The translations under genes were made by a program, and so were the position numbers. Shown here one piece after another: positions 4,565 through 34,328 of a DNA stretch of 59,956 bases (position 1 is its first letter; the number at the start of each line of letters is the position of its first letter). The notes under the pieces were generated by a model. It saw only the letters and a list, made by a program, of their open reading frames with translations, did not search any database and was not told the origin of the DNA. Origin of the DNA: Escherichia phage vB_EcoS_ESCO3; the sequence record OM386652.1. One strand, given 5' to 3'.

Positions 4565-5179
4565 TTACTTTTTACACGCTTCAAGAAATTCCCGACGCCA
4601 TGTGTCACCAGTCACGTCCGGTAATACATCATCACCCAATGCAGTACGTCCGCGGAATGCTTTAGTGATGGTTGAGCTGCCGCATACCTGTTTAACACCG
4701 CGCGACTCCATGCACATATGTTTTGCATCGATGTAAACACACACAGCTTTCGGGTCTAAGTGTTCCACGATAGCATCCGCAATCTGATTAGTCAGACGTT
4801 CTTGGACTTGCAAACGTCGAGCAAAAGCATCAACCACACGAGATAACTTACTAAGGCCAACAATTTTTCCATTCGGGACATACCCGACCACCGCATGACC
4901 AATAATAGGAGCCATATGATGCTCACAATGACTGTAGACAGGGATATCGCGGACGATGACCATTTCATTACAGTTTTCCCCACCATCTTCAAATGTCTTG
5001 AACAGGGATGCGATATCAACAGAATAACCTCCGAACCATGTAGCATAGGCCTTAGCTACACGATCTGGAGTTTCAACTAGACCTTCACGCAAGTCATCGC
5101 CACCTTCAATCAACTTTAAAATCTTTTCAATACTGTGCGAAATTTCTGCTCGGTTTGTCATCTTTGTAAATTCATTCAT
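4565..5179 (-). CDS. folE: GTP cyclohydrolase I
   Basis: 204 aa. FolE signature SHCEHHMAPIIG...GLSKLSRVVDAFARRLQVQERLTNQIA. AAGGAAA ribosome-binding site before the ATG. Confidence 0.88.
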   Translation of the reverse strand: MNEFTKMTNRAEISHSIEKILKLIEGGDDLREGLVETPDRVAKAYATWFGGYSVDIASLFKTFEDGGENCNEMVIVRDIPVYSHCEHHMAPIIGHAVVGYVPNGKIVGLSKLSRVVDAFARRLQVQERLTNQIADAIVEHLDPKAVCVYIDAKHMCMESRGVKQVCGSSTITKAFRGRTALGDDVLPDVTGDTWRREFLEACKK

Positions 5180-5205
5180 GGTTTACAGTTTCCTTGTGTG
5201 GTCAA

Positions 5206-5739
5206 TTATTTGCAATAGTTGACATGACATTTAGACGTTTCTTCAATGGTACATTCTACCAGTTCAACACCATATTGGTCAAGCAGTTGAGGACCAATCA
5301 CGTCAACCATATATGCAGCTAAGTTTTCCGCGGTCGGGTTGAATGGTAAAGCTACCAAAGAATCAAGGAACGGATCATAATCTTCATCCGTTACTAAATT
5401 GTTTTCACGTGCAAACTTAGTCGATGCAACAACAATGAGCGAATTAATCATGCTGTCTTGTTCCCAATGCAGGAACTTATGATCCCAGTTATCTTCCAAC
5501 CACTGGCAAAGCGTAGTTTTAACCACACTAAAGTCGATAACTCGGCCTACGTCATCCAGCGAACCTTCTAGAGCAAATCCACTTACAGACTTGACGTAAC
5601 CTTCCGACAATGTTTTCTTCGGGGCAACTTTAAAATGGAACTTATAGTTGTGACCGTGAAGGTGACGACACTTACTTTCATGACCTACAACACGGTGGCC
5701 AGCGCAAATCTCATGTGAACGAATAACAGTGTAACCCAT
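5206..5739 (-). CDS. queD: 6-carboxy-5,6,7,8-tetrahydropterin synthase (QueD)
   Basis: 177 aa. Zn-binding motif CAGHRVVGHESKCRHLHGHNYKF (Cx3HGH type) typical of QueD/PTPS. Confidence 0.85.
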   Translation of the reverse strand: MGYTVIRSHEICAGHRVVGHESKCRHLHGHNYKFHFKVAPKKTLSEGYVKSVSGFALEGSLDDVGRVIDFSVVKTTLCQWLEDNWDHKFLHWEQDSMINSLIVVASTKFARENNLVTDEDYDPFLDSLVALPFNPTAENLAAYMVDVIGPQLLDQYGVELVECTIEETSKCHVNYCK

Positions 5740-5741
5740 TT

Positions 5742-7157
5742 TTATTCCTCGTTTTCGTATTTAATAACTTCTTGTGCGTTATTAATATTAAACGCAGTCC
5801 GACGCATCATGCAAGGGCCACAAGTACCGCAATGCAGATCCCCGTTACGGTAACAGCTCCAGGTGTGCTCCAACGGGGCCCCTAAACGTAGGCCTGTAGC
5901 GACAATTTCGTGCTTCATTAAGTTACCTACTGGCATGAGCACTTCAACTCGCTTACCGTCCCCTACAGCGAACGGTAACACCTGATTAAAGCGGTTAATA
6001 AACTCAGGCTCGTTGTCCGGATAGGCTCCAGCTTCTTCTAAATTGTTACCAAGAACAATATAGTCGAAACCGTTAGCTTCTGCGTATGCAGTAGCAACAG
6101 AAAGCATCACAAGGTTACGAGCTGGAACCCATTCATGTGCGAACTCAGCACCTTCTTCACCGCCAGCAATTGCAGCATCTTGATCAAATAACGGGCTATC
6201 TTTCTTATCGTAAATTGGGATTGGGAATTCAACTAATGGAACTTCCATCACTTCCGCAATTTTACGAATAGCCTTCAACTCGTTAGTTTCAGCACGACAA
6301 CCATACTGGAAGTTAATCAAAGTAACATCCAAACCGTTGGACTTACACATCTGAGCTGCCACTGTGCTGTCCATACCACCACTGGCGACAACTAACGCCC
6401 GTTGAGTCTGCTTATTTGGAATAAGATCAACCTCACTGCATACACCAGTCGATGTGACCACATTACAGGTGTAAGGTTTCAACATTTGCTTAATAGCGCG
6501 GGTTGGTAGCATATCTTCCTGGCTGGCAAAATACATACCCGTGTGAGTCTTACCGATCCAAATTGGACGGTAATTACATGCTGCAAACACATACCCAGGA
6601 ATTGAATCATGCGTTGCAAGGATTGCGTAACTCCCTTTCAACTTGCGAATAACTTCGTGAAATACGTTATAAAGGTAATTTAAATCGGACAGACACATTT
6701 CATCTGTCGAAAGTGTGCATTCTGCTAGCTGTTCTACAATCGCAGCACTATCGATCTTAGTCTGTAGTGCATAGGTACGAAGGTCTTTATCGTTCGCAAT
6801 AGTACCGTTATGAACAATAGTCCAACCATCGAGATGATACGGTTGTTGATCCCATTCGTTCTTGTCAACGACCCACTCTGTAGTCGGTTCAGCGCGAGCG
6901 TTACCAATCATTGTGAAGCTACCAATAGCTCCAGCGTGAGATGCAATGCGCCCGACTTTAACAAGACGTTCCAGCGATGTTTCCTTACCGACGCTGACGA
7001 TACGTTGCGGGTGCATACTGTGGTCACCATGCGTGAAGCGTACACCAAGACCATCACGACCACGGTTAATACTAGCTTTAATAAGATCGTCAATGTCGTT
7101 ACGGATGATAAGACTTTCAGGTTGACCGTTAGTAATGACACCAAAGATAGAGCACAT
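5742..7157 (-). CDS. Gat-QueC fusion: class-II glutamine amidotransferase fused to a QueC-like PP-loop ATPase
   Basis: Start placed at the internal ATG at 7157 (MCSIFGV, N-terminal Cys nucleophile), which abuts the stop of the upstream gene at 7159. C-terminal half has PP-loop SGGMDS and a Zn-binding CGTCGPC like QueC. The track ORF extends to 7256. Confidence 0.8.
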   Translation of the reverse strand: MCSIFGVITNGQPESLIIRNDIDDLIKASINRGRDGLGVRFTHGDHSMHPQRIVSVGKETSLERLVKVGRIASHAGAIGSFTMIGNARAEPTTEWVVDKNEWDQQPYHLDGWTIVHNGTIANDKDLRTYALQTKIDSAAIVEQLAECTLSTDEMCLSDLNYLYNVFHEVIRKLKGSYAILATHDSIPGYVFAACNYRPIWIGKTHTGMYFASQEDMLPTRAIKQMLKPYTCNVVTSTGVCSEVDLIPNKQTQRALVVASGGMDSTVAAQMCKSNGLDVTLINFQYGCRAETNELKAIRKIAEVMEVPLVEFPIPIYDKKDSPLFDQDAAIAGGEEGAEFAHEWVPARNLVMLSVATAYAEANGFDYIVLGNNLEEAGAYPDNEPEFINRFNQVLPFAVGDGKRVEVLMPVGNLMKHEIVATGLRLGAPLEHTWSCYRNGDLHCGTCGPCMMRRTAFNINNAQEVIKYENEE

Positions 7158-29501: not shown

Positions 29502-29807
29502 TTATTGTTGAATAGCTTTAGCTATCATTGTGATGAAGCAGAACACAGACCAAANGCTATTCGCTTGGCATACTGGGCGACCATACATTACGCTATAAGA
29601 GCTGACAGTGCCGTCTTCGTTAATGCGAACGTATAACGCGGTGCTGGAATATTTTTCGTTGCCCGGGAGCATTACCAGATACTCATCGAAATCCCAATCC
29701 CCGTCAACCTTTTCCGCTGTAAGGCCCAGCTGATGCAGGCGCTTGCCGATAATGCGCTTAGTAATCTGAGATTGGGACATGGAACGCGGTAAGTAGATAA
29801 TGGACAT
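29502..29807 (-). CDS. hypothetical small early protein (family A, copy 2)
   Basis: Start placed at the ATG at 29807 (MSIIYLPRS) with a GGGAG ribosome-binding site; the track ORF extends to 29861. Contains one ambiguous base (N at 29565). Confidence 0.45.
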   Translation of the reverse strand: MSIIYLPRSMSQSQITKRIIGKRLHQLGLTAEKVDGDWDFDEYLVMLPGNEKYSSTALYVRINEDGTVSSYSVMYGRPVCQANSXWSVFCFITMIAKAIQQ

Positions 29808-29882
29808 AATGCAATCTCCCTTCGGGTGAGGCGGGCGCGGAACCCGTGTCCCGCTTAACAACCCCCTTTACCCTACGCATTT

Positions 29883-30563: not shown

Positions 30564-30929
30564 ATGAACGAGAATATAGTTAAAGCCTGGTCTATCTTAC
30601 GACCACAGCTGAAAGACGATCGTGTCGCTTTTGTTTTATGTCCTGTTAACGAATATCGCCGGAAGCTCGAAGAAGTGTTGCGCGAGGATCCTGAGTTCGT
30701 TCGCTGTGTACAACTGTCGCGCGAGTCATCCGTGGTACAGTTTGATCGTTTCCACCTTCGTTTGGTTTCTCATCACAGAGCCTCGTATGAAGACACTGTT
30801 ACTCGTACGAGTGGCTTCCATTGTGATATTGCAATCCTTGACTGCAAACTGGACATTGGGCAGAAACAAAATTTATATAATCTCGCTCGTGAACGTCACG
30901 GTGAATTGTTAATTGTGGAAGTGCAATAA
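30564..30929 (+). CDS. hypothetical protein
   Basis: 121 aa; first gene of the rightward arm; GGGG ribosome-binding site before the ATG. Confidence 0.5.
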   Translation: MNENIVKAWSILRPQLKDDRVAFVLCPVNEYRRKLEEVLREDPEFVRCVQLSRESSVVQFDRFHLRLVSHHRASYEDTVTRTSGFHCDIAILDCKLDIGQKQNLYNLARERHGELLIVEVQ

Positions 30930-31267
30930 TGGCCAAAGATATCGTTATTCCGAAAATGTATTGCCAACTTCGTGATACTTTATTACAAAGTGGTTGGATT
31001 ATCAGTCACAGCGATGTAAATGACACTTATATCGTTCTTATACCACCTGAAGGAACCATATCCTGCATTTTGCACTACATGCCCGAAGCGAAAACGGTTT
31101 ATCCGAACGGGTCGTTCCTGCTTCGTTTGCGCTCCGATACATGGAAGATCCAGACGGATACTTGTGCAATTGACGAGAATACCAGTAAAGAGTTTATTCG
31201 CAAGCTAACTCAGCTGAATAAAATCTACCAGCATGTTAAATTTGATTTGTTTAAGGAAGTCTTCTAA
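30929..31267 (+). CDS. hypothetical protein
   Basis: 112 aa; start overlaps the upstream stop. Confidence 0.5.
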   Translation: MAKDIVIPKMYCQLRDTLLQSGWIISHSDVNDTYIVLIPPEGTISCILHYMPEAKTVYPNGSFLLRLRSDTWKIQTDTCAIDENTSKEFIRKLTQLNKIYQHVKFDLFKEVF

Positions 31268-31707
31268 TGATTACTATGAAAGATCGTATCGCCCATAAAA
31301 CTCAACCGACAATGATGTCTTGCATAGCTACTTGCTTGGCTATGCTTATTGATAAAGACCCGAAAGATGTGGACCAAGAATTTAGCGGTAAATATATCCG
31401 TGGACATATTGATGTTGCTAGTTATCTATATCGATACGGTATCTTTGCACAACCACATGTCACCGCTGGTATGCACCAAATCCGACCTGGGCGCTTGTAT
31501 CTTGCGACTGTACCTTCTTTGCAGTTGCCTGGGCTTTTCCATCAGATCATTATTGACGCTCGTTTTGACGGTGTGACCGTATACGACCCAGCGAAAGGTC
31601 TGGAAGGGAAACAATACTATTCCTATGACCACATTGCAGAAGAAAACGAGCTGGCGTATCCTTTGCGGTCTTTCTTGATTGATTACGAAATTATATTACC
31701 GGAGTGA
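31267..31707 (+). CDS. putative papain-fold cysteine peptidase (C39-like)
   Basis: 146 aa. KTQPTMMSCIATCLAML resembles the Q...C(G)xxCLAM active-site region of C39 peptidases; downstream HQIIIDARFDG supplies candidate His/Asp residues. Confidence 0.45.
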   Translation: MITMKDRIAHKTQPTMMSCIATCLAMLIDKDPKDVDQEFSGKYIRGHIDVASYLYRYGIFAQPHVTAGMHQIRPGRLYLATVPSLQLPGLFHQIIIDARFDGVTVYDPAKGLEGKQYYSYDHIAEENELAYPLRSFLIDYEIILPE

Positions 31708-31710
31708 TTC

Positions 31711-32064
31711 ATGAGCTTGCAACGTTTTGACAATGCAGAACTCGCGTGTGAATTTGCAAAGCGCAAGTTTGCTAAAACAGGTACGCCGCGATGCGTGCAC
31801 GCGGCTATTGGGCAAAATGGGGCAAAGTATTGGTACGTTGGTACAGTAGCTCAGATCAAGCGAAGATTCGCGACTACGCTCGAAATGCGCCGGCTTGGGT
31901 CCCCTACACTTGTACGAAACAGGCACTTGGATAAAGAGGAAATTTATCAATTTCTTAGGAATTACACTGGTAAAGAGAATAGATTTCAGGTTGCAGCGAA
32001 AGAATTTAATATCGGTCTTTCTACTGCTTATAAAATTTATCACATATATGGGCGTTTAATATGA
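31711..32064 (+). CDS. hypothetical protein with C-terminal HTH-like segment
   Basis: 117 aa; segment FQVAAKEFNIGLSTAYKIYH looks like a helix-turn-helix. Confidence 0.4.
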   Translation: MSLQRFDNAELACEFAKRKFAKTGTPRCVHAAIGQNGAKYWYVGTVAQIKRRFATTLEMRRLGSPTLVRNRHLDKEEIYQFLRNYTGKENRFQVAAKEFNIGLSTAYKIYHIYGRLI

Positions 32065-32555
32065 CCGCAATTGCTTATCGTAATGGTGTATTGGCTGTAG
32101 ATCGTCAGGTTACATGGGGTAATGTTGCAACAACTACGAATAAAGTTCATACTATCAGTATTCCGGGGATTGGTCTGTGTCTTGTTGCCATGTCTGGTAA
32201 ACTACGTGCTGTAGATGACATTGTAGAGCATCTACAAACTACGTCACGTGGACGCAAAGAACCTTTCTCAGATTTAAATCCAGATTCGCGTTATGGTATT
32301 GCTGTGACGCAGGAACTTGTCGTATATCCTATCTACGGGGATGGTAAATTAGGTCTACCGGACACTAACGAATTTATTGCGGAAGGTAGCGCGTTTGAGT
32401 TCTTGATGGGTACAATGGCGGCAGGTTGCAGTGCGGAAGAGGCTGTGAGATTGGCCTGCGAATACTGCGATAGCTGTGGTCAGGGTGTCAACTTCTATGA
32501 CGTAGCTTATACTCTGAAAATGGCGCAGTGTAAACCCGAGGAGAAACCATTTTGA
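32061..32555 (+). CDS. HslV-like Ntn-hydrolase (proteasome beta-type threonine peptidase fold)
   Basis: 164 aa. N-terminus MTAIAYRNGVLAVDRQVTWGNVATTTNK parallels the HslV N-terminus (Thr nucleophile straight after Met); internal IAEGSAFEF...AEEAVRLA parallels the HslV GSGG region. By-eye alignment only. Confidence 0.45.
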   Translation: MTAIAYRNGVLAVDRQVTWGNVATTTNKVHTISIPGIGLCLVAMSGKLRAVDDIVEHLQTTSRGRKEPFSDLNPDSRYGIAVTQELVVYPIYGDGKLGLPDTNEFIAEGSAFEFLMGTMAAGCSAEEAVRLACEYCDSCGQGVNFYDVAYTLKMAQCKPEEKPF

Positions 32556-32743
32556 AGAAACCTAAGACTGGTCTGTTCCTTTGTGTTGGTGGACCTTTTG
32601 ACGGTAAGCGTATACGCTTAACAACATCAGATTTGCATCCAAGTTCCTCCGTTTTCTCTGTTCCATCCTATAAAAATGGTGAGAAGGGGAAATACGTCTG
32701 CAATGATGAAATTCGAAATAGTGTAATCTGGAGAACATCATGA
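32552..32743 (+). CDS. hypothetical protein
   Basis: 63-aa ORF, translationally coupled. Confidence 0.35.
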   Translation: MKKPKTGLFLCVGGPFDGKRIRLTTSDLHPSSSVFSVPSYKNGEKGKYVCNDEIRNSVIWRTS

Positions 32744-32967
32744 GTGATCCTACAAATGCGCAATTATCGGCTGCAAGAGTGTATATGCGCGGAGCTGCCG
32801 CTGAGATTGAGGCTTTGCCGCAATTTGAAAAGCATGTACAGCAACTTGAACATAAATTTAAGGCTCTTAAAGATCTAGGAGATAAGAAGGACGCTATAGC
32901 ATTTCTTTTTGCTCTTCAATACTTTGTCATGGGGTCTGATGAGAAACTATGTTCCTTAGAAGAATAA
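32740..32967 (+). CDS. hypothetical protein
   Basis: 75-aa ORF. Confidence 0.35.
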   Translation: MSDPTNAQLSAARVYMRGAAAEIEALPQFEKHVQQLEHKFKALKDLGDKKDAIAFLFALQYFVMGSDEKLCSLEE

Positions 32968-33449
32968 TTGGTATGGTTGCACCTTGGATACCACTTGTCA
33001 TAATTGTTATTCTAGCCAACTGGGCTTATGACAATGCCATAGAATCAGCTAGAAAGGAGGGTTTCGATGCCGGTGTGTCGTACCAAAAAGAAACTCAGAA
33101 AGCGGTTGATTTCGAGGAGGAGAAACGAAGAGCATATGAGAAAGACACTATCGAACGTCAGTACCAATCTCGCATTGAGTCTTTGGTTGCCGATCTTAAT
33201 AATTATCGCGTTACTAATGACAGGTTGCACAACGAAATCGCAACCGTCCGTAAGTACCTCGGTGACGCTACCGGCCCTCAGCCCGACAGCAAGACAACCG
33301 CCCAGATCGCCCGTGTGCTCACCGAGCTGTATTCAGAAAGCGTCACAGAATACAGACAAGTGGCAGAAGAGGCTGAAAAGTATCGTATTGCCGGCGAGCA
33401 GTGCGAACTACAGTATGATTCAATGCGAAATCCGCGTAAAGAAAAGTGA
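32949..33449 (+). CDS. i-spanin (Rz-like)
   Basis: 166 aa. N-terminal transmembrane helix (IIGMVAPWIPLVIIVILANWAY), then a charged coiled-coil periplasmic domain; an o-spanin-like ORF is embedded in the +1 frame. Confidence 0.55.
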   Translation: MFLRRIIGMVAPWIPLVIIVILANWAYDNAIESARKEGFDAGVSYQKETQKAVDFEEEKRRAYEKDTIERQYQSRIESLVADLNNYRVTNDRLHNEIATVRKYLGDATGPQPDSKTTAQIARVLTELYSESVTEYRQVAEEAEKYRIAGEQCELQYDSMRNPRKEK

Positions 33450-33480
33450 TAAACTGCAAAGTCCTTGCTGGGTTGCGTAA
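33136..33480 (+). CDS. o-spanin (Rz1-like lipoprotein), overlapping the i-spanin gene
   Basis: Start placed at the ATG at 33136 (MRKTLSNV...). Signal sequence ending LLMTGC (lipobox-like) followed by a Pro-rich mature region. Out-of-frame overlap with Rz is the classic architecture. Confidence 0.5.
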   Translation: MRKTLSNVSTNLALSLWLPILIIIALLMTGCTTKSQPSVSTSVTLPALSPTARQPPRSPVCSPSCIQKASQNTDKWQKRLKSIVLPASSANYSMIQCEIRVKKSDKLQSPCWVA

Positions 33481-33571
33481 TTAAACGTTCAATCTTAATT
33501 GCACATAATTGATTGTGCGCATGTGATAATTCAACTATGCTCTATTCGGTTTAACTGAATGGAGCTTTTTT

Positions 33572-34006
33572 ATGACTGTGCAACCACGAGGCATCCGGAA
33601 TAACAATCCAGGAAATATTCGTTGGGGTGATAACTGGAAAGGTCTTGTTCCAGAAAACAAACGAACTGACCGTTCTTTCTGTCAGTTTATCGATGTAAAA
33701 TACGGTATTCGCGCCATTGCGCGTATTCTACTAAACTACCGCAACCGCGAAGGGATGAAGCGTGTCGGCAATAAAGGGATTGACACTGTACGGGAAATTA
33801 TTTCGCGCTGGGCTCCGCCGAATGAAAATAATACTGAAGCCTATATTCAATCCGTGTCTAAGGCTTGTGGTGTTGGTGCAGAACAGCCGATTTCAGTGAC
33901 CGATGATAAAATCATGCTCGCGATCGTGAAAGCGATTATCAGACATGAGAACGGTGTGCAACCTTATTCCGATGAAGATTTGCTCGCGGGTATCCACATG
34001 GCATAG
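33572..34006 (+). CDS. hypothetical protein, possible peptidoglycan hydrolase (endolysin candidate)
   Basis: 144 aa with conserved-looking GIRNNNPGNIRWG motif. Assignment rests on position in the lysis region and vague motif recall. Confidence 0.3.
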   Translation: MTVQPRGIRNNNPGNIRWGDNWKGLVPENKRTDRSFCQFIDVKYGIRAIARILLNYRNREGMKRVGNKGIDTVREIISRWAPPNENNTEAYIQSVSKACGVGAEQPISVTDDKIMLAIVKAIIRHENGVQPYSDEDLLAGIHMA

Positions 34007-34019
34007 TAAGAGGTTATAA

Positions 34020-34328
34020 GTGTCGCCGAACTGGGATTGGAATATAGTCTTTATTCTCACTGCCATTGCGATGGTAGGGGGTTCCCTTGGCTACGCTGCA
34101 AGAACCCATGATGCTAAAGAAAGGTTCAGACTCAGTGTCTTCATTCAAGAGGGTGCTTTTTCTGCATTCTTTGGTTTCTTGATAGGTGTAATTAACGTGG
34201 AACATGGTGTCTCACTGGGGCTCAGTGGGGCGTTCATAGGCGTGTTATCTTGGTCAGGTTCAAGAACCATGCTAAAGTTTCTACGGAGAAAAACGGAAGC
34301 ATGTGACCGAGAAAAGGAAAGAGGTTGA
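34020..34328 (+). CDS. small membrane protein (holin-like)
   Basis: About 100 aa with two or three hydrophobic helices (IVFILTAIAMVGGSLGYAA; AFSAFFGFLIGVINV; GLSGAFIGVLSW) and a charged C-terminus. The track start is non-ATG (GTG). Confidence 0.4.
   Translation: MSPNWDWNIVFILTAIAMVGGSLGYAARTHDAKERFRLSVFIQEGAFSAFFGFLIGVINVEHGVSLGLSGAFIGVLSWSGSRTMLKFLRRKTEACDREKERG

Follow-up and report, generated by a model that had tools for sequence, protein, structure and literature searches.

Escherichia phage vB_EcoS_ESCO3 carries genes for a predicted C39-like peptidase and a predicted PPH-type proteasome-like hydrolase upstream of its lysis cassette

The window analysed here, a stretch of 59,956 nt from record OM386652.1, belongs to Escherichia phage vB_EcoS_ESCO3, a siphovirus of the 9g/JenP2 group (Nonagvirus, Queuovirinae), and contains, upstream of the lysis cassette, three consecutive genes that we call A, B and C. 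Structure prediction and sequence comparison indicated that A is a C39-like peptidase, encoded as a separate protein and with its catalytic set intact, and that C is a proteasome-like N-terminal nucleophile (Ntn) hydrolase of the PPH type, placed by the published description of that family, rather than an orthologue of HslV. The structural and family assignments of the locus are solid; the peptidase activity of A and C and their roles are what we infer. The reading that we favour, and hold to be fairly probable, is that the locus supplies two catalytically competent cytoplasmic accessory peptidases, expressed from the promoter-proximal part of the rightward (late) operon with a small DNA-binding-type protein encoded between them.

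The open reading frames (ORFs) of A, B and C were all found on the + strand at exactly the coordinates given by a first-pass annotation of the same DNA, and the motifs quoted there, as well as a lysis cassette downstream, were all present (Table 1). Between 30500 and 34400 the window is 96% identical to JenP2, which has the same gene order at the locus, and 91-95% identical to 16 other records. As the three genes belong to conserved PHROG families and the candidate catalytic residues are conserved, the arrangement cannot be regarded as a chance observation.

The product of gene C starts with MTAIAYRNGVLAVDRQ and carries the motif AEGS at residues 107-110. Among 20 relatives, with identity down to 46%, Met1-Thr2, Asp14, Gln16, Lys28, Gly46 and Ala107-Glu108-Gly109 were invariant and Ser110 nearly so. 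When 43 diverse relatives were aligned together with E. coli HslV, Met1, Lys28, Gly46 and Gly109 occurred in 44/44 sequences, while Thr2 (Ser in the other two) and Asp14 each occurred in 42/44. Sequence searches of the PDB gave nothing significant for A, with single-sequence or profile queries, and the C profile reached PDB HslV sequences at E 0.1-0.3 only; a fold search and hhalign were used instead. The AlphaFold2 model of C (pLDDT 90.8) returned 201 Foldseek matches at E <= 1e-3 and, among the matches listed, all were proteasome-like Ntn hydrolases. HslV 1m4y ranked first (E 7.5e-7), followed by BPH, Anbu and archaeal and yeast proteasome beta subunits, with TM scores of 0.55-0.62. A single helix (residues 48-58) lies in the model between strands 38-44 and 77-83, i.e. 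helix H2 is absent. C had no Pfam match at E <= 1 and no match to NCBIfam models, and PF00227 was touched by one of the 20 relatives, at E 0.11. The lack of H2, together with the failure of the HslV and Proteasome models, argues for C being a PPH member and not an HslV orthologue, and judged by its residues C looks catalytically intact.

The PPH family was described in 2021 as compact (about 140 residues) and phage-borne, with H2 absent and the triad and Gly47 kept (PMC8665760). C resembles it in being phage-encoded, in its compact proteasome-beta-like core, in its Met-Thr start without a propeptide and in retaining the Thr/Asp/Lys triad and the oxyanion-hole Gly without H2, and its nearest structural neighbours are group I proteins (HslV, BPH). 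Relatives of C are mostly 140-150 amino acids (aa) long, start with MT.IAYRDG and come from tailed phages and prophages; most of the top 150 representatives have 137-160 aa and match from residue 1. In contrast, C itself is somewhat longer, at 164 aa, carries an additional helix and tail at its C-terminus, and in its lineage adjoins a C39-like peptidase. The word 'cysteine' is absent from the main text of PMC8665760, so the pairing of C with A was apparently not described there. The first-pass annotation had held a phage HslV-like subunit to be rare, which does not agree with a family already described, labelled in PHROGs and, as 'peptidase HslV family', in the RefSeq records of JenP2, JenK1, 9g and SE1, found by tblastn in 88 phage records and comprising 3634 representative clusters (50% identity) in an exhaustive profile search at E <= 1e-3.

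The description of C as HslV-like, made in the same annotation, was accurate for the fold, Thr2, the Asp, the Lys and the Gly-Ser motif, but not for family membership, where the HslV and Proteasome models failed and H2 is missing. C and HslV share their fold and a Thr nucleophile directly after Met, and Asp17, Lys33 and the Gly-Ser motif of HslV can be aligned with C. When distant phage homologues were used to bridge the alignment with E. coli HslV, the columns holding its Thr, Asp17, Lys33 and Gly-Ser Gly were invariant, and hhalign paired AEGS of C with AIGS of HslV. However, C is only about 25% identical to HslV in the multiple alignment, has no significant sequence-model match and does not possess the full H1-H4 helix set.

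Gene A encodes a protein with the motif Q13...S18-C19-IAT-C23-LAML, followed later by H92 and D107. Its AlphaFold2 model (pLDDT 92.4) spans all 146 aa and consists of a papain-like domain only, in which a helix starts at Cys19, the arrangement of papain-like enzymes; thus, for both A and C, the predicted structures adopt the folds that the first-pass annotation had proposed, and the catalytic residues are conserved. The fold of A is closest to C39 domains, deubiquitinase (DUB)-like matches being weaker. Comparison of the A family profile with CvaB by hhalign gave a probability of 92.5% and E 4.8e-7, and aligned Q13, C19, C23, H92 and D107 of A on Q26, C32, C36, H105 and D121 of CvaB, the N-terminal query sequence of which was 100% identical to annotated cvaB. 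Cys32 and His105 are the residues that we take to be catalytic in CvaB. The five residues of A were all invariant in 27 close relatives, and in 11 diverse homologues C23, H92 and D107 were invariant and Q13 and C19 at least 90% conserved. Pfam Peptidase_C39 (PF03412) was touched by two of the 27 close relatives at E 0.004, below threshold, and A itself returned nothing significant from Pfam or NCBIfam.

With the C39 domains of CvaB, ComA, PCAT1 and LahT, A shares the papain-like fold and the same order of Gln, Cys, His and Asp, and Q-x5-C-x3-C-L-A-M and H...DPAKG of A correspond to Q-x5-C-G-L-A-C-L-A-M and H...DPARG of CvaB. It differs from them as a predicted stand-alone cytoplasmic protein without an ABC transporter, no partner of this kind being annotated in JenP2, with similarity below the PF03412 threshold, without an evident Gly-Gly-leader substrate gene and with a family that was phage-confined in the searches made. 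The pseudomurein endoisopeptidases PeiW, PeiP and PeiR (C71) and the deubiquitinase-like, papain-fold Josephin/UfSP enzymes are further comparisons from which A differs, as it has neither wall-binding repeats nor lysis-cassette conservation across phages and its sequence profile points to C39 instead. The 63-aa ORF downstream of C was considered as a substrate of A and rejected, its VGG being followed by Pro and judged an unlikely cleavage site.

The distribution of the two families showed that their pairing is a feature of one lineage. The tblastn records containing C belong to Queuovirinae, Vid5, Craquatrovirus, jumbo Erwinia phages, Aeromonas and Klebsiella myoviruses and PEi21, while A was found by the same method in 191 records, from Queuovirinae, Kuttervirus and other Ackermannviridae, VP5-type Vibrio phages, Pseudomonas phages and others. 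A and C lie side by side upstream of the lysis/terminase block in Nonagvirus, Seuratvirus, EC151, Vid5 and Craquatrovirus. Elsewhere A is found by itself: in Kuttervirus it separates the topoisomerase II subunits, in Vibrio phage VP5 it lies upstream of a helicase, and in a Pseudomonas phage it is surrounded by genes annotated only as hypothetical. In an IMG/VR sample of 80 of the 214 confirmed PPH stretches, an A homologue occurred within 4 kb of PPH in 3/80 diverse loci, all three Queuovirinae-like. Since A is near PPH in so few of these loci and alone elsewhere, the pairing is lineage-bound, and the idea of A and C as a general two-peptidase module is ruled out by the same count.

Three other records deserve mention in this respect (L numbers are our own labels for loci). 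In the 51-kb Logan contig L107, an A homologue is 0.9 kb away from a PPH-like gene (E 1.5e-12) at 5001-6819, with ligase, small terminase and amidase genes downstream of both, an A-PPH neighbourhood beyond the named Queuovirinae. In CSP1C (L106, PQ202980.1, 1834-4747), product names are apparently shifted by one gene: 'Cysteine protease' stands on a 61-aa ORF beside the A homologue, 'ATP-dependent protease subunit HslV' on an 86-aa ORF after PPH, and 'endolysin', 'holin' and 'spanin' have also been placed one gene too far along. It appears that this record of 2024-25 had already reached both peptidase labels, one gene out of place. Aeromonas phage 4L372D (L007, 3432-4885) has two adjoining 'peptidase HslV family' genes, one of them divergent and 183 aa long, the second of 294 aa with a long C-terminal extension that resembles the RPC group of Fuchs et al.

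Gene B, between A and C, had been described in the first-pass annotation as a helix-turn-helix protein. The gene is indeed there and conserved; its label depends, with no significant match in NCBIfam, on sub-threshold Pfam matches (HTH_7, E 0.09; HTH_23, E 0.19) and on a C-terminal stretch of 50 aa common to the positional counterpart in L002, from a clade about 50% diverged (BLASTP E 3e-5), and there is thus a weak indication of a C-terminal helix-turn-helix at about residues 71-113. B separates A and C only in Nonagvirus-like clades, and Seuratvirus CSP1C has the 61-aa ORF in its place. In Enterobacter phage EC151 and Providencia phage PSTCR4, B is absent and A and C abut or overlap, and since the two genes are directly joined there, B is dispensable for the A-C pair.

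At the nucleotide level, the start ATG of A shares bases with the stop codon upstream (TAATG) and lies behind a Shine-Dalgarno-like AAGGAAG, B starts 4 nt past A and is preceded by GGAG, and the C/B overlap is ATGA. The two genes at 30564-31267 appear to open a rightward operon after a divergent intergenic region and to be co-transcribed, a layout that we propose because divergent promoters were described at the corresponding junction of phage 9g (PMC4276943).

The neighbourhoods of PPH genes in other phages were analysed over 102 immediate same-strand neighbours from 64 dereplicated non-Queuovirinae viral loci. About 15 of the 102 were large terminases, at least 11 portals and 5 Ad1 adaptors, about 30% together, against a chance expectation of a few per cent, which is our own estimate from about three such genes per genome of about 75 genes and does not derive from a control set. 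PPH directly follows the portal gene in L046, L037, L064, L084 and L025, lies between terminase and portal in L049, L057, L060, L089 (1979-6525) and L101, is found between scaffold and capsid in the T7-like contigs L033, L042 and L070 and precedes the adaptor Ad1 in L043, L048, L051 and L094. In L046 (2607-4426) and L037 (1183-3014), PPH starts within the end of a portal gene that shares its PHROG with the portal of the window; the order in L046 is terminase, portal, PPH, MuF-like protein, scaffold and capsid, with portal, scaffold and capsid all of the PHROGs of the window. Over diverse IMG/VR contigs (L025-L104), PPH genes were strongly associated with packaging and head genes. Exceptions are L073, where PPH is not in a head module, and jumbo phage Machina, where it is gp1 at the genome end.

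On the favoured reading, Cys19 at the helix start of A, with Gln13 for the oxyanion hole and His92 and Asp107 completing the active site, would, by analogy with C39 domains, cut a cytoplasmic phage or host protein site-specifically after a small-residue (Gly-Gly-like) motif. In the case of C, host methionine aminopeptidase would remove Met1 and so expose the Thr as nucleophile and base, Asp14, Lys28, Gly46 and Gly109-Ser110 would complete a proteasome-type active site with no propeptide involved, and the enzyme would most likely work without HslU. As PPH genes elsewhere adjoin terminase, portal and adaptor genes, our best guess is that C carries out proteolysis connected with late infection or with head assembly. 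For A, which in many other phages is found on its own among early or replication genes, the best guess is the processing or inactivation of a specific protein, independently of C.

The head module of the window was examined for a maturation protease of its own. The first-pass annotation had seen no prohead protease there, and we agree: neither a prohead protease nor an AAA+ unfoldase was recognisable in the window or in JenP2, and A and C did not match the PHROG and Pfam families of known prohead proteases (ClpP/S49-like, HK97 gp4/T4 gp21-like). The terminase, portal, scaffold and capsid genes are downstream of the lysis cassette; the window has a scaffolding protein, and its capsid protein starts about 26 residues before the family profile. 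A capsid delta domain in the form of a long N-terminal ORF extension was rejected, as the annotated start in JenP2 is Met45 of the ORF. Since the scaffold is separate and the capsid has no delta domain, a head protease would, by analogy with P22, SPP1 and T7, not be required. JenP2 gp57 (L110, 36152-36430), a 92-aa protein of the early region, is labelled 'protease' in RefSeq and is too small for a typical protease domain.

Several points weigh against the reading of two active accessory peptidases expressed late, or against parts of it. No convincing candidate for a Gly-Gly-leader-like substrate was found among the ORFs of the window. A scan of 28.8-35.3 kb for promoters and terminators did not exceed the shuffled expectation, promoter-like sites included, and the expression timing therefore rests on the inference made in the 9g paper. 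Neither the 9g, Vid5 and EC151 papers nor literature searches yielded biochemical or genetic data on either family, the 2021 family survey being the only literature found on the function of phage HslV, PPH or C39 proteins. A and C are not among the Vid5 virion proteins named in the main text, which names several of 11 (PMC6266253), and a proteasome-like fold does not guarantee a protease, connectase, a member of the superfamily of C, being a ligase (PMC8665760). As to head assembly, the lysis cassette and the terminase genes intervene between C and the head genes, C lies about 4 kb from the portal, PPH has in one locus a DnaB helicase on one side and a DNA transfer protein on the other, and L084 contains, besides PPH, another protein labelled protease ahead of the capsid gene. 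T7 needs no head protease, and the PPH-bearing T7-like contigs are of that phage type.

Among the alternatives, it is possible, if doubtful, that A, C or both are directed at the host and destroy or deconjugate defence factors, stress regulators or ubiquitin-like conjugates ending in Gly-Gly. The patchy, accessory-like spread of both families over unrelated phage groups would suit such a function, as would the presence of A in early or replication regions of VP5 and Kuttervirus and the promoter-proximal position of A-C near the genome end described for 9g. However, A, B and C gave no significant match to PADLOC defence models and none to known anti-defence families, the literature offered no link, PPH genes are mostly in the head/packaging module and not in early regions, and the DUB-like matches of A are weaker than those to C39. 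The first-pass annotation had suggested that one of the two peptidases may be a remotely encoded maturation protease. In the form that C, at a distance from the head genes and possibly assisted by A, matures the prohead or scaffold as a threonine-Ntn counterpart of the usual serine prohead proteases, we regard this idea as unlikely. It is kept alive, though unproven, by the frequent adjacency of PPH to terminase and portal genes elsewhere, including the positions between scaffold and capsid and before Ad1, and gains from the lack of a recognisable prohead protease in the window and JenP2 and from L046, with the portal, scaffold and capsid families of the window. It loses from the separate scaffold and the capsid without a delta domain, if the analogy with P22, SPP1 and T7 holds, from the lack of an extra prohead-targeting domain in PPH, from the 'protease' gene of L084, from L073 and Machina gp1 outside head modules and from the distance to the portal in the window. 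A broader proposal, which we consider quite improbable, is that PPH threonine peptidases are an unrecognised class of tailed-phage head-assembly proteases, replacing the serine prohead proteases and trimming or clearing portal, scaffold or capsid, and that in the Queuovirinae-like lineage the gene moved upstream of the lysis/terminase block and became coupled to a C39-type peptidase.

It is very improbable that C replaces HslV by docking on host HslU, so that an ATP-dependent protease under phage control would result. In favour of this, HslV chains rank among the top structural matches, the MT...D.Q...K pattern at the N-terminus of C parallels that of HslV, and the E. coli host encodes hslVU; nevertheless, BPH, Anbu and archaeal proteasome beta subunits scored about the same as HslV, and the annotation of the near-identical JenP2 genome contains no hslU-like gene. 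Moreover, the position aligned with HslV Lys28, which presumably binds the HslU C-terminus in the HslUV structure, is Ala in C and variable among its relatives. With the failed sequence models and the missing H2, this leaves the cooperation with HslU suggested in the first-pass annotation unsupported. The same annotation had considered A as an endolysin, and a role of A as a cell-wall peptidase, i.e. a second endolysin acting on peptidoglycan cross-links, is scarcely credible. The spanin, endolysin and holin genes do follow about 1.2 kb downstream of A, but the cassette has a dedicated endolysin, A has no Pfam-detectable domain and its model leaves no room for a wall-binding one, its homologues in Kuttervirus, VP5 and Pseudomonas phages are outside lysis cassettes, some among replication or early genes, and its significant profile match is the C39 domain of CvaB. 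Equally remote is a function of C as a sequence-specific transpeptidase or ligase like connectase, for which A might prepare the substrate. The helix set of PPH is reduced too and in one lineage C adjoins a site-specific type of peptidase, but the top structural matches are HslV, BPH and proteasome-type proteases, not connectase.

For the window itself, the outcome is a corrected annotation more than a surprise, as the family of C has been known since 2021 and is publicly labelled, while for A a new functional annotation is obtained within a well-known clan. Accordingly phrog_4049 (191 phage records), so far listed as of 'unknown function', can be given the annotation of a probable Cys/His/Asp peptidase, with residues named for mutation. 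PPH, with thousands of clusters, is the smallest proteasome relative and the most clearly virus-native, and its closeness to terminase and portal genes suggests a testable hypothesis, in which a threonine protease would act at a step of head assembly or late infection. Phages 9g, JenP2 and their relatives in the BASEL collection are easy to handle, so point mutants are feasible.

Table 1. Features of the locus, with positions in the window.
Feature	Position	Strand	Details
Two function-unknown genes upstream of A	30564-31267	+	121 aa, phrog_17838; 112 aa, phrog_21152
Gene A	31267-31707	+	146 aa, phrog_4049 (E 5e-55)
Gene A, predicted catalytic residues	Gln13 31303-31305; Cys19 31321-31323; His92 31540-31542; Asp107 31585-31587	+	
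Gene B	31711-32064	+	117 aa, phrog_17085 (E 2.5e-80)
Gene C	32061-32555	+	164 aa, phrog_1040 'peptidase HslV family' (E 1.2e-36)
Gene C, key residues	Thr2 32064-32066; Asp14 32100-32102; Lys28 32142-32144; Gly46 32196-32198; Gly109-Ser110 32385-32390	+	
Two small ORFs after C, then lysis cassette	32552-34328	+	ORFs of 63 aa and 75 aa; in agreement with the RefSeq annotation of JenP2
Rz-like i-spanin	32949-33449	+	
Nested o-spanin ORF	33067-33480	+	out of frame in i-spanin gene; lipobox-like LLMTGC
Endolysin	33572-34006	+	phrog_873 (E 3e-64)
Holin	34020-34328	+	

Some minor observations concern the surroundings of the three genes. The first rightward gene (30564-30929, + strand) showed a faint NCBIfam sigma-factor match (E 0.11), and the 9g paper mentioned an unexpected transcription regulator at the same genome end (PMC4276943). 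Near the divergent intergenic region, the ORF at 29502-29861 (- strand) has an X in its translation, i.e. an ambiguous base. The ORF nested in the i-spanin gene is a candidate o-spanin and completes a lysis module that had not been identified in the original 9g paper. The sole strong terminator-like site of the 28.8-35.3 kb region is a hairpin with a 12-bp stem followed by a T-run, at 33539-33565 (+ strand) between the spanin genes and the endolysin. It might divide the genes here into an A-C-spanin and an endolysin-holin-terminase block.

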